A stretch of DNA of 64,000 bases from Escherichia coli (GTDB lineage Bacteria; Pseudomonadota; Gammaproteobacteria; Enterobacterales; Enterobacteriaceae). Position numbers: made by a program. The stretch lies in the NCBI RefSeq assembly GCF_029227855.1, contig NZ_CP074357.1; one strand, 5' to 3'. Shown piece after piece: positions 27,001 through 30,000 of the stretch; the stretch's first letter is position 1; every line of letters starts with the position of its first letter.

Positions 27001-30000
27001 AACTAACAGGCTGAAAAGCATAAAGGTAGCTATGTCTAAAGAATTTTATTTAAAACCGATGGCCACGATTTTAATTTCTGCGGTAATTGCTACCGCTGCC
27101 TCGGCGTTAATCGCGGCAACTTATTTTAAACCGAAGGTGCTCAGTGAGGAAGAAATTGGCAAAATTGCCGCTACTTACCTGGTAAAAAATCCCCATTATT
27201 TAGTGGAAGCAGGTAAGGCGCTGGAAAATCAGAACGTAAGTGCCTCAGTGGAACGAATAATTCCATATGCGCCAGCTCTGCTGGATACCAAGGAGACGCC
27301 AAACATCGGCCCGGATGACGCCGACGTCGCGGTAATCGAGTTCTTCGACTATCAGTGTATTTACTGCATGCGGGTTACACCTGTTGTTGAATCGGTAATG
27401 AATCAGAGCAAAGATGTAAAATTCTTCTTTAAAGAATTCCCGATTTTTGCCGGTTCAAAACCTGTATCTGCCATGGGGGCCGCTACGGGTCTGCACGTCT
27501 ATCAGAATTTCGGTGCTGAAGCCTATCGTAAATACCACAACAACCTGATGGCTGTGGCTCATACCTTCATGACCTCTCAACGCAAATTCGAACTCAGCGA
27601 CTTTAATACTGTGGTGGATAAGTCAGGGTTTAACAGCACGTTTTCTGACAGGGAAAAAAACCGATATGAAAACGTGATCTCCGGCAACATGCAGCTGGGC
27701 GAAGCGCTTGGGATCACCGGCACACCCGGCTTCATCATTATGAATATGAAAAAGCCGAATGCGGCGACTACCACATTTATCCCCGGGGCTATGGACGCAG
27801 CAACTTTGCAGGGCGCAATCGAAAAAGCTCGCGGGGCCTAAAGTTACTTTCACTTTTGATGAGTACGGCCATGCCGGTCATGGCCGCTACGCTTTTACAA
27901 CGAGTAATTCATCCCAGCGGGTCGTATATCTCGGTGATAGCATGGCCTGTTTCATACGAAAATCCTGTTGAATGCCTTCCCCCAGCAAAAACAGAGCTCC
28001 GCGCTTTTCTTTATTGAACCGGTCCATAACTTTCATCAGTGCCTGACTGCCAGGCCTGGCCGGGCGCTCATCAAACAGGCTGAGTTGCTCTGTGCCGTCA
28101 GTCATAGCGGAGAGCATTACCCCAGCTTTCGCATACGCTATCCCGGGTTTGTAAATGCGGTTCAGGATGGTCATGGCTGCATCAACCAGATCGCGGGTGT
28201 CCTGTGTAGCGGTAAGCGGCTCGATACCACAATTGCTGTAGCGGTTTTCACCTTGCGCATAATTGCTGCTCTGAATGAAGACTGTGATTTGACGGGTCCA
28301 CGAGCCATCCTTGCGCAGCTGCTCTGCCGCCCGGGCGGTAAAAAATGAAACTGCCTCATGTAGCTTGCCTATCTCATTAAGGCGCTGACCAAAACTTCTG
28401 GAAACGATAATCTGTTGCCGGACAGGAGGGGATTCATGCAGCCGGAAACATGGTTCGCCATGCAGTTCCCGCCAGGTACGCTCGATTTCAACGCCAAAGC
28501 TTTTACGTAAAAAGCGAACGTCGCTATTATAAAAATCACCGGCAGTGATGATCCCGAAAGCCGACAGGCGTTCACTGATCTTTTGACCAATACCCCATAT
28601 TTCTCTGGTACTGATAAGGCCCAGGAGCTTCCTGATCCTGGCCTGATCAGTCAAAACTACAACCCCGCCTGTAGCTGCCCATCGTTTGCTCGCATAGGTG
28701 CATAATTTAGCCAGGGTTTTGGTGCTTGAACACCCCACACCACAGGTAAGGGACAGATTATGAAGAAGTGTACTTCTGATCAACCGGCCGTAATCTTCAT
28801 AATCTATTATCTTGTTCATGTTTTTCAATAACATGAAATTTTCATCTATGCTATATCGACTCGATTGAGGCGCGAAGCTTTCCAGCGTTTCATGGAAGCG
28901 ATTTGAGTAGTCTTCATACAAAGTAAAGTTAGAGCTCCGGACTTCGATCTGGTGTTGCTGAATCAAATCCCTGCACTTAAAAATTGGGGTCCCACGCTTA
29001 ATACCAACGCTTTTAGCCAGTTTATTCATTGCAATGACGGACGAATCGTTATTGCTGGCTATGATGAGCGGCTTTTTTGCCAGCTTGGGATCCATCGCAC
29101 ACTCAAATGCCGCATAGGCCCCGTTAATATCAACGTGCATGTACATGGCTAAACTGATTCAGTGCAAAGGTGACGACGCCCCATATCTCAAGGGATTCGG
29201 GATTTACACGTATCGGCTTATAGGCTGGATTAGAAGGCATCAAAAGCAGCTCAGGATACGTGTGTAAGATCTTTACCGTGAACTCTCCATCCACCAGCGC
29301 AACGACGATAGAGCCGTGTCGTGCCGTTAAAGACCGATCCACAACCAGAATAGCGCCATCATTGATACCGGCATTGATCATACTGAGGCCCGCCGCCCTG
29401 ACAAAGAAGGTTGAGGGGCGGTTACGGACTACATATTCATGCAAATTTAATTCATTATCTTCATGCCCGGCGCACGGACTCATCACTCCACAGCTCAGTA
29501 AATCACTGAAAAAAGGTGCCATTTCGTAAGGCTTGTTGCTAATGTGCTCAAGGATAACAGACATAGCTACACTCGAATTCTCATACTGTATGTATAAACA
29601 GTATTGCGAGTTACAGAGAAAAGATCAAATCTCTCCGGTAACGCTATCGAGCCTGACGAAAAATTAAGCTTTGTCACAAACACCAAAAACCATCTTTTAC
29701 CGATAATGGCGAGCTGGCCTACGAAGAAGGTATACAAGCTAGGATGAAAGGATTCTGATGCCCCTCCCACCAAATTTTTTATCTCCTGAAGACCAGGCTG
29801 AGTACGATGCTTATATGTCAAGATTCAGCGAGATAAATCACTATTATGATTATCACACTGTCCCCGTGATTGACTGGTTCTTTAAACAAGCAACCGAGGC
29901 GTTGCATCACGAACTATGGATACCGGCCTGTACGAGCTTCCTGAACGGGATTGAAACATCACTCATGGTTACGTTGAAGTCGCTGATGCTGAAACCAACA

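Follow-up and report, generated by a model that had tools for sequence, protein, structure and literature searches.

Two overlapping genes resembling umuD and umuC lie at positions 27887–29603 of the 64-kb window, i.e., the whole stretch of E. coli DNA that was analyzed (64,000 nucleotides). The question is whether they form an SOS-inducible error-prone polymerase operon on the plasmid which, as the initial annotation proposed, may raise mutation supply under antibiotic stress alongside the resistance genes. The region is very probably the umuDC-type operon of the IncHI2 backbone, encoding a plasmid-borne ortholog of DNA polymerase V. As such it is an ordinary feature, already known and annotated as umuDC-type on this backbone.

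Both reading frames are intact. The umuD-like gene (29130–29564, minus strand) encodes a predicted S24 self-cleaving subunit of 144 aa. It lies directly 5′ of the umuC-like gene (27887–29146, minus strand; 419 aa, Y-family polymerase subunit), and the two overlap out of frame by 17 nt (29130–29146, minus strand; ATGTACATGCACGTTGA), which is the gene order of pol V operons. The boundaries of the interval 27887–29603 coincide with the umuC stop codon on one side and the outer edge of the LexA box on the other. An alternative umuC start is the ATG of Met3 (29138–29140), and RefSeq records start at either Met1 or Met3. Inspection of the junction sequence revealed no clear Shine-Dalgarno sequence in front of umuC, so translational coupling to umuD is likely. 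As for umuD itself, a weak Shine-Dalgarno-like GAGTG was found by eye at 29570–29574 (minus strand), 5–9 nt before the ATG, within a CGAGTGT block that is also kept in IncHI1.

On the downstream side, a GC-rich hairpin GGCCATG-N5-CATGGCC (27867–27885) separates umuC from the convergent DsbA-family gene, and the minus-strand fold of 27842–27900 has an energy of −17.5 kcal/mol (z = −2.45). Transcripts of both genes might end here, although the umuC side has no T-run and the terminator scan made no call there. Upstream of umuD, a 193-bp intergenic region is followed by a divergent gene of 205 aa with no match in Pfam, NCBIfam, or PADLOC, the distant homologs of which reside in defence or ICE islands, away from umuDC. 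Since this neighbor has no domain matches and its homologs are not found beside umuDC, a general functional link between it and pol V was rejected.

According to both domain models and structure-linked alignments, the first protein is a UmuD-type subunit. It matches Pfam Peptidase_S24 (E = 2e-24) and the NCBIfam pol V subunit model NF007621 (129.8 bits, curated cut-off 110), and a PDB sequence search returned UmuD (8gmt_B, E = 1.3e-31) with an alignment that spans both the cleavage and the active sites. The Cys25-Gly26 site (29487–29492) aligns with Cys24-Gly25 of UmuD, and Ser61 (29382–29384) and Lys98 (29271–29273) align with Ser60 and Lys97; these codons were verified by hand on the sequence. 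Moreover, the first residue of UmuD′ (Gly, residue 1 of 1umu_A) aligns with Gly26, and a 6-way alignment of UmuD, MucA, and the IncK, IncL, IncHI1, and IncHI2 proteins shows no variation at G26, S61, or K98.

Regarding the second protein, the combination of Pfam IMS, IMS_C, and C-terminal DUF4113 represents the UmuC-specific architecture. The NCBIfam UmuC model NF002955 scores 464.7 bits against a cut-off of 431, covering positions 1–418 of 422, whereas pol IV models reach at most 121 bits against cut-offs of 256–399. The PDB sequence search with this protein returned only relatives of pol IV, iota, and kappa and no UmuC entry, and its catalytic residues were for this reason checked by alignment. 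The catalytic and steric-gate residues are all present, namely Asp6 (29129–29131), the steric gate Tyr11 (29114–29116), and Asp101-Glu102 (28841–28846), together with Glu15 and the SIDE motif (Ser99–Glu102). Among 148 diverse representatives of the UmuC family, position 6 is Asp in all 146 that cover it, Asp101 and Glu102 are found in 148 of 148, and the steric gate position 11 is Tyr in 119 and Phe in 27. The clamp motif QLSLF (residues 354–358, 28073–28087) agrees with the column consensus of the same set (Q in 126, L in 120, and F in 124).

The active-site lid (HVDINGAYAAFE), however, carries residues around Tyr11 that are atypical of the family. Ala10, Ala13, and Phe14 occupy positions that hold Phe, Ser, and Cys in 134, 137, and 135 of the 148 representatives, respectively, and E. 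coli UmuC likewise has Phe10, Ser13, and Cys14. Ala10 and Phe14 occur together in just one other representative. The change F10L at UmuC position 10 strongly alters fidelity and mutagenesis (PMC3401427) and reshapes sugar selectivity. Given this effect and the rarity of the residues flanking the gate, the activity of the IncHI2 enzyme could differ from that of E. coli pol V in either direction. The IncHI enzyme also has at most 48% identity to the characterized orthologs that were compared and falls into a 50%-identity cluster of its own. Judging by these sequence features, it might represent a functionally distinct pol V lineage with a different error or ribonucleotide-incorporation profile, although this appears unlikely.

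The near-consensus SOS box reported in front of the genes is confirmed as well. The LexA box TACTGTATGTATAAACAGTA at 29584–29603 (minus strand; TACTGTTTATACATACAGTA on the coding strand) matches 18 of 20 positions of the consensus TACTGTATATATATACAGTA, i.e., it has 2 mismatches, exactly as many as the box of E. coli umuDC. It is the sole site with at most 3 mismatches in the 64 kb, and none of 100 dinucleotide-preserving shuffles gave such a site. The pattern CTGT-N8-ACAG is seen 4 times in the window against 0.73 expected, and one of the three other matches is the known LexA site of intI1. The distance from the end of the box to the umuD start codon is 19 nt, equal to the spacing in E. coli umuDC. 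The box is identical in a second IncHI2 lineage (the 94%-type plasmid L007), and its IncHI1 counterpart TACTGGTTAAATATCCAGTA keeps the half-sites but has 4 mismatches to the consensus (CTGG...CCAG arms), unlike the 2 in IncHI2. Each comparator operon (E. coli umuDC, IncN mucAB, IncK impCAB-type, IncL, an Enterobacter plasmid, and IncHI1) has one strong box 13–21 nt before its first gene. Box strength was assessed as the number of mismatches to the consensus and by direct comparison with the operons listed. An inverted-repeat search of the umuD intergenic region returned nothing, which is explained by box arms of only 6 nt, and no additional operator was seen.

As for the promoter, a −10 hexamer AATACT (4/6; 29600–29605, minus strand) was proposed by hand; it overlaps the left arm of the LexA box and corresponds to GATACT in IncHI1. 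A −35 hexamer TTGATC (29623–29628, minus strand) is located 17 nt upstream of it, inside a 16-nt block (29615–29630; ATTTGATCTTTTCTCT) that is identical between IncHI1 and IncHI2 despite diverged flanks. In E. coli umuDC, TTGATC also occurs, 17 nt upstream of the LexA box. An alternative −10, TACTGT (29598–29603, minus strand), would be separated from the −35 by 19 nt, which corresponds to the reading for E. coli umuDC. The automatic promoter scan called nothing upstream of umuD because 8 of 12 matching positions fall below its threshold of 9. TTGATC-N17-AATACT is a candidate umuD promoter, as suggested by the footprint shared between IncHI1 and IncHI2 and by the E. coli parallel.

Alignment to MucAB, ImpAB, and UmuDC upholds pol V membership at 37–48% identity. 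E. coli umuDC shares with the IncHI2 operon the gene order, the Cys-Gly site, the Ser/Lys dyad, Asp6, Tyr11, Asp101, Glu102, the QLxLF motif, and a single LexA box at the same distance from the ATG. However, it is chromosomal rather than plasmid-borne, its genes overlap by 1 nt in K-12 as opposed to 17 nt, and identity is just 40% for the D and 48% for the C subunit, the latter exceeding the UmuC value of every other comparator outside IncHI. MucAB of IncN plasmids (pKM101/R46 type, "DNA polymerase RI") is also plasmid-borne and LexA-boxed with overlapping genes, and its identity to the IncHI2 proteins is 48% (MucA) and 45% (MucB). Although the IncHI2 literature calls the operon mucAB (PMC4855149), the RefSeq names on matching IncHI2 plasmids are umuD/umuC, and equivalence to MucAB was rejected, with MucB at 45% against 48% for UmuC and a Cys-Gly instead of an Ala-Gly cleavage site. 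By sequence identity, the IncHI2 operon is a separate branch, no closer to MucAB than to UmuDC. ImpCAB-type operons (IncI/IncK/IncB) likewise encode a pol V ortholog on a plasmid and have a LexA box (37% and 44% identity for D and C), but begin with the DinI-like impC, which is present in the IncK comparator. The IncHI2 operon has no impC, the gene upstream of its umuD being divergent and unrelated rather than DinI-like, and the ImpCAB-type assignment was also rejected.

The true ortholog is umuDC of IncHI1 (pHCM1/R27-type), with 81% (D) and 84% (C) identity, the same convergent DsbA-family and divergent 205-aa flanking genes, the same 17-nt overlap and box position, and the same −35 block. 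RumAB (polV-R391) of SXT/R391 ICEs is similar by description in being a mobile-element pol V accompanied by a MOBH relaxase. Of such enzymes, it has been studied best with respect to use of host RecA and damping in the native context (PMC9262582, PMC8460599). Its regulation involves a Cro-like repressor, whereas no counterpart was seen adjoining the IncHI2 operon.

The operon belongs to the conserved plasmid backbone. It lies outside the IS26-bounded resistance block, beside the transfer region with traD, mobH, mobI, trhH, and traG-N, and mucAB/umuC is listed as an IncHI2 backbone landmark bordering the resistance region (PMC4855149; PMC9599605). The 2.1-kb segment matches 945 PLSDB records, 934 of them predicted conjugative, and the 25 IncHI2 plasmids at the top of that list of 945 carry it with 100% identity; top matches for which typing was read are all IncHI2A/MOBH/MPF_F. 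For the 126-nt promoter segment, identity reaches at least 99% in 492 records and lies at 90–95% in another 422 (94.4% in the five listed). Among plasmids, no relatives with 60–80% identity were found, which sets the IncHI clade apart.

Both genes are under purifying selection. Between IncHI1 and IncHI2, synonymous divergence is saturated (pS 0.69–0.77) while pN is about 0.10. Within IncHI2, 9 synonymous and 0 nonsynonymous changes were counted in umuD, and omega for umuC is about 0.16. Together with the kept box and TTGATC, the combination of saturated pS and low pN argues for a functional, LexA-repressed operon, and the initial annotation's proposal of an SOS-inducible error-prone polymerase on the plasmid is supported by protein models, residues, and a box conserved in IncHI1. 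The conditions named there as refuting, absence of the polymerase's catalytic residues or of the UmuD cleavage site, do not apply, as both are present.

By analogy with E. coli pol V, MucAB, and RumAB, the operon would work as follows. A dimer of host LexA would occupy 29584–29603 in unstressed cells and keep the operon shut, since the box overlaps with both the −10 hexamer and the start region of the candidate TTGATC-N17-AATACT promoter. DNA damage caused by UV or quinolones, or incoming conjugative single-stranded DNA, would lead to RecA filaments, LexA self-cleavage, and transcription from this promoter, with umuC translation coupled via the 17-nt overlap. The UmuD-like dimer would then cut itself on the RecA filament at Cys25-Gly26 by means of the Ser61/Lys98 dyad, and the shortened dimer would bind the UmuC-like polymerase with its active site of Asp6, Asp101, and Glu102 and its steric gate Tyr11. 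The resulting mutasome, with RecA-ATP and the beta clamp held through QLSLF, would be expected to perform low-fidelity translesion synthesis past lesions and might thereby affect the host mutation rate.

The same genes could have other roles. The S24 family is common to LexA, LexA structures match the UmuD-like protein at E ~1e-10, and Acinetobacter UmuDAb has been published as a repressor, so it is conceivable that the protein functions primarily as a LexA-like repressor or as a checkpoint factor. At 144 aa, however, it is too short to include an N-terminal DNA-binding domain, its alignment with UmuD and MucA extends over the full length, and its gene appears translationally coupled to a complete umuC. 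It also passes the pol V subunit cut-off, while the LexA model reaches only 59.6 of the required 110.95 bits. On length and model scores this extremely improbable alternative was rejected. It is also very unlikely that the two genes have become a relic, inactive or silenced, that travels with the backbone. The literature search found no experiment or functional data on the IncHI enzyme, only annotation-level mentions, which would suit a relic, as would the weak promoter consensus match, the unusual residues around the UmuC steric gate, and the truncated or frameshifted copies on a few plasmids (40% of the protein in H85, two pieces in H31). A relic would nevertheless hardly combine two intact frames with every catalytic and cleavage residue, a very low pN/pS across saturated synonymous divergence, and a conserved upstream box and −35 block, and about 95% of the matching plasmids (899 of 945) hold at least 80% of the segment.

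A functional operon, in turn, need not serve mutation supply. It is quite possible, if not the favored reading, that it primarily benefits the plasmid through damage tolerance and gap filling of plasmid DNA, for example when single-stranded DNA entering a recipient triggers SOS; the net host mutation increase would be small because usual hosts already carry chromosomal umuDC. Such a role agrees with the position in the conserved backbone adjoining the transfer region and outside the IS26-bounded block, as well as with the strong purifying selection seen on the operon in IncHI1 and IncHI2 alike. Intact R391 added just ~31–38% mutagenesis in a umuDC+ recA+ lexA+ host (PMC9262582), and R391 also encodes factors by which its pol V is suppressed in the native context (PMC8460599). 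Benefits to plasmid and host are, however, not mutually exclusive, and the present data separate neither from the other.

With respect to the resistance genes, the IS26-bounded MDR block begins ~1.7 kb past the LexA box, so they do lie alongside the operon, with the operon indicating the boundary of the MDR region from the backbone side. The block matches a plasmid with dfrA14, arr-2, mph(A), qnrS1, blaCTX-M-55, blaTEM-1, and blaLAP-2. A LexA-controlled error-prone polymerase sharing a conjugative plasmid with qnrS1 and blaCTX-M-55 offers a plausible route from antibiotic-induced SOS to more mutations, and by analogy the operon may raise mutation supply under antibiotic stress. The idea is a standard one for MucAB and RumAB, and annotation has already linked it to this gene pair. 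The practical value of the analysis is confirmation that the operon is intact and under selection and that its regulatory site is conserved. Should the IncHI enzyme indeed prove to be a distinct pol V lineage, that lineage would sit on roughly a thousand sequenced MDR plasmids.

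The operon occupies 27887-29603 on the minus strand, bounded exactly by the umuC stop codon on one side and the LexA box's outer edge on the other. The umuD-like ORF (29130-29564, minus strand, 144 codons) is followed downstream by the umuC-like ORF (27887-29146, minus strand, 419 codons), the two overlapping out of frame by 17 nt. The predicted LexA box (29584-29603, minus strand) reads TACTGTTTATACATACAGTA, stands 19 nt upstream of the first ATG and shares 18 of 20 positions with the consensus TACTGTATATATATACAGTA. No other site in the 64-kb window has three or fewer mismatches to this consensus, and such a site arose in 0 of 100 dinucleotide-preserving shuffles. 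The initial annotation, which described overlapping UmuD- and UmuC-like genes behind a near-consensus SOS box, is thus borne out, coordinates included.

The core CTGT-N8-ACAG occurs four times in the window versus 0.73 expected. One of the three further matches, CTGTTTTTTTGTACAG at 32553-32568, is the LexA site known from the intI1 promoter. It has stayed intact and directly precedes a class 1 integrase gene that IS26 has cut to a stub of about 445 bp (about 32096-32540, minus strand). The other two, at 8763-8778 (CTGTCGGGGCGAACAG) and 26408-26423 (CTGTCTGACGGCACAG, within ORF 26314-26925), have GC-rich spacers and are probably due to chance. A second intI1 5' end (62881-62899, CTGTTTTTTTGGGGTACAG) carries the GGG insertion that generates the active cassette promoter P2 and disrupts the LexA site (PMC8876359). 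Since the site is intact at 32553-32568 and broken at 62881-62899, the two integron remnants are predicted to differ in SOS control.

Regarding the small subunit, the Pfam search reports Peptidase_S24 (E 2e-24), the curated NCBIfam model of the pol V autoproteolytic subunit scores 129.8 bits (cut-off 110), and solved UmuD and UmuD' structures align with E values from 1e-31 to 1e-25. The predicted cleavage site Cys25-Gly26 aligns with UmuD Cys24-Gly25, GLSM (Ser61) with GDSM (Ser60), and FTVK (Lys98) with FTVK (Lys97); Gly26, Ser61, and Lys98 do not vary among six aligned sequences, namely this protein, UmuD, MucA, and the IncK, IncL, and IncHI1 proteins. As for the large subunit, it contains the Pfam domains IMS, IMS_C, and DUF4113 and matches the curated NCBIfam UmuC model end to end (464.7 bits, cut-off 431), with pol IV models reaching at most 121 bits. 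Asp6, Tyr11, Glu15, and Asp101-Glu102 are all found by alignment, and the clamp motif QLSLF occupies residues 354-358. Of the 150 best cluster representatives in a 1.84-billion-sequence library of 50%-identity clusters, the family alignment took in 148, each of 380 aa or more. Among these 148, Asp is present at position 6 in all 146 that cover it, Asp101 and Glu102 are conserved in every one, and 146 have Tyr or Phe at position 11. Neither the cleavage site nor the polymerase catalytic residues, whose absence was named as grounds for refutation, are missing, and the reading as an SOS-type error-prone polymerase is supported at the sequence level.

Identities to characterised pol V branches (E. 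coli, IncN, IncK, and IncL) are modest and even: 40% and 48% for E. coli UmuD and UmuC, 48% and 45% for IncN MucA and MucB, 37% and 44% for the IncK ImpAB type, and 48% and 44% for IncL. The plasmid search found no relatives at 60-80% identity, and in the 50%-identity library the cluster ranked next after the protein's own UmuC cluster is at 46%. Taken together, these three observations place the IncHI enzyme, a pol V family member by all sequence criteria tested, on a separate branch of that family. MucAB in the narrow sense was rejected because the cleavage site is Cys-Gly, whereas MucA has Ala-Gly, and MucB is no closer than UmuC; ImpCAB was rejected because the operon has no DinI-like first gene.

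The ortholog on the IncHI1 plasmid pHCM1 has 81% (UmuD-like) and 84% (UmuC-like) identity and is flanked by the same genes. Between IncHI1 and IncHI2, both genes show pS of 0.69-0.77, which is saturated, and pN of about 0.10; between two IncHI2 lineages, umuD has 9 synonymous and 0 nonsynonymous changes, and umuC an omega of about 0.16. The upstream non-coding DNA has mostly diverged beyond easy alignment; conserved in it are ATTTGATCTTTTCTCT (29615-29630), a stretch of 16 nt, and the LexA-box arms CTG...CAG. TTGATC-N17-AATACT (GATACT in IncHI1) is a plausible candidate sigma-70 promoter, its -10 hexamer overlapping the left arm of the box. Because the hexamer pair scores 8/12, the automatic scan made no call upstream of umuD, and we therefore infer the promoter. 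E. coli umuDC also has a TTGATC hexamer, 17 nt before its own LexA box, and shares the box-to-ATG gap of 19 nt. Each comparator operon (E. coli umuDC, IncN mucAB, IncK impCAB type, IncL, an Enterobacter plasmid, and IncHI1) has one strong LexA box 13-21 nt before the first gene. The 126-nt promoter segment is present in 914 plasmid records as two sequence types, with identity of at least 99% (492 records) and 90-95% (422 records; 94.4% in the five listed); in L007, the 94%-type plasmid examined, the box is identical.

The 2.1-kb segment carrying the operon matches 945 plasmid records altogether, 934 of them predicted conjugative, in Escherichia, Enterobacter, Salmonella, and Klebsiella; identity is at least 99% in 511 and 100% in the 25 top-listed. 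The four IncHI2 records examined are typed IncHI2A / MOBH / MPF_F, and window positions 7700-32096 are collinear with plasmid pSTM6-275 (99.98%). The feature is already known: RefSeq names the genes umuD and umuC, and the IncHI2 literature treats "mucA/B" or "umuC" as a marker of the backbone, placing the multidrug-resistance region between umuC and dcm (PMC4855149; PMC9599605).

In the window, a multidrug-resistance block (about 31276-62069) starts about 1.7 kb from the umuD LexA box and is framed by five IS26 copies (about 31276-32096, 34345-35165, 38701-39500, 56675-57494, and 61250-62069). Across 32000-56900 it shows 100% identity with pSG17-135-HI2 and plasmids like it; these bear dfrA14, arr-2, a cmlA fragment, mph(A)-mrx-mphR, qnrS1, ISEcp1-blaCTX-M-55, blaTEM-1, and blaLAP-2. 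Divergent from umuD lies a 205-aa gene (29758-30375, plus strand) with no family match in Pfam, NCBIfam, or PADLOC, kept at the equivalent place in IncHI1, where the counterpart is 54% identical. An R-x4-H motif (RNNLCH) is present, and its distant homologs of ~186 aa are labelled MAE-28990/MAE-18760-like HEPN proteins in UniRef; the three homolog loci examined lie in defence or ICE islands with R-M, ThsB-TIR, caspase-like peptidase, and patatin genes, none beside umuDC. The gene may encode a HEPN-type nuclease or serve in defence. A DsbA-family gene (27032-27841, plus strand) converges on umuC in IncHI2 and IncHI1 alike, just as dsbB follows umuDC convergently in E. coli K-12. With several thioredoxin-fold genes present in IncHI transfer regions, the parallel is probably coincidental.

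The sole oddity of the operon is the steric-gate neighbourhood. The N-terminal active-site strand is HVDINGAYAAFE, compared with the family consensus LVDCNNFYASCE. Among the 148 representatives, position 10 (29114-29119 for residues 10-11, minus strand), Ala here, is Phe in 134 and Ala in 5, while positions 13 and 14 (29105-29110, minus strand), here Ala and Phe, are Ser in 137 and Cys in 135, respectively; Ala10 and Phe14 occur together in just one other representative. All three residues surround the Tyr11 steric gate. Met occupies position 10 in MucB and the IncL protein, so this position is not fixed among active enzymes. Given that position 10 adjoins Tyr11 and that F10L in E. coli UmuC tightens sugar discrimination, raises fidelity, and lowers spontaneous mutagenesis (PMC3401427), the IncHI enzyme may by analogy differ in fidelity profile or sugar selectivity. 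For this widespread pol V lineage and its unusual steric-gate neighbourhood, the literature searched offered annotation-level mentions only.

The standard pol V pathway is very probably the right account of the operon. The intact genes, their motifs, and the LexA box were observed directly, as were conservation and selection; the further steps are drawn by analogy from MucAB, RumAB, and the pol V of E. coli. LexA would keep the promoter shut by covering the -10 hexamer and transcription start, and its cleavage, triggered by the RecA filament, would derepress the operon, with umuC translation coupled through the gene overlap. The UmuD-like dimer would then cleave itself at Cys25-Gly26, and UmuD'2C with RecA-ATP and the beta clamp would carry out low-fidelity lesion bypass. 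The operon may plausibly raise mutation supply during antibiotic stress, as initially proposed. The usual hosts already possess chromosomal umuDC. In a host with chromosomal umuDC, the intact R391 element raised mutagenesis by only 31-38% (PMC9262582), and R391 actively damps its own pol V (PMC8460599). A plasmid-centred role, in damage tolerance or in establishment after transfer, is a live alternative in keeping with the operon's place in the backbone, adjoining a transfer region and outside the IS26-bounded resistance block. Such a role would be compatible with the one initially proposed.
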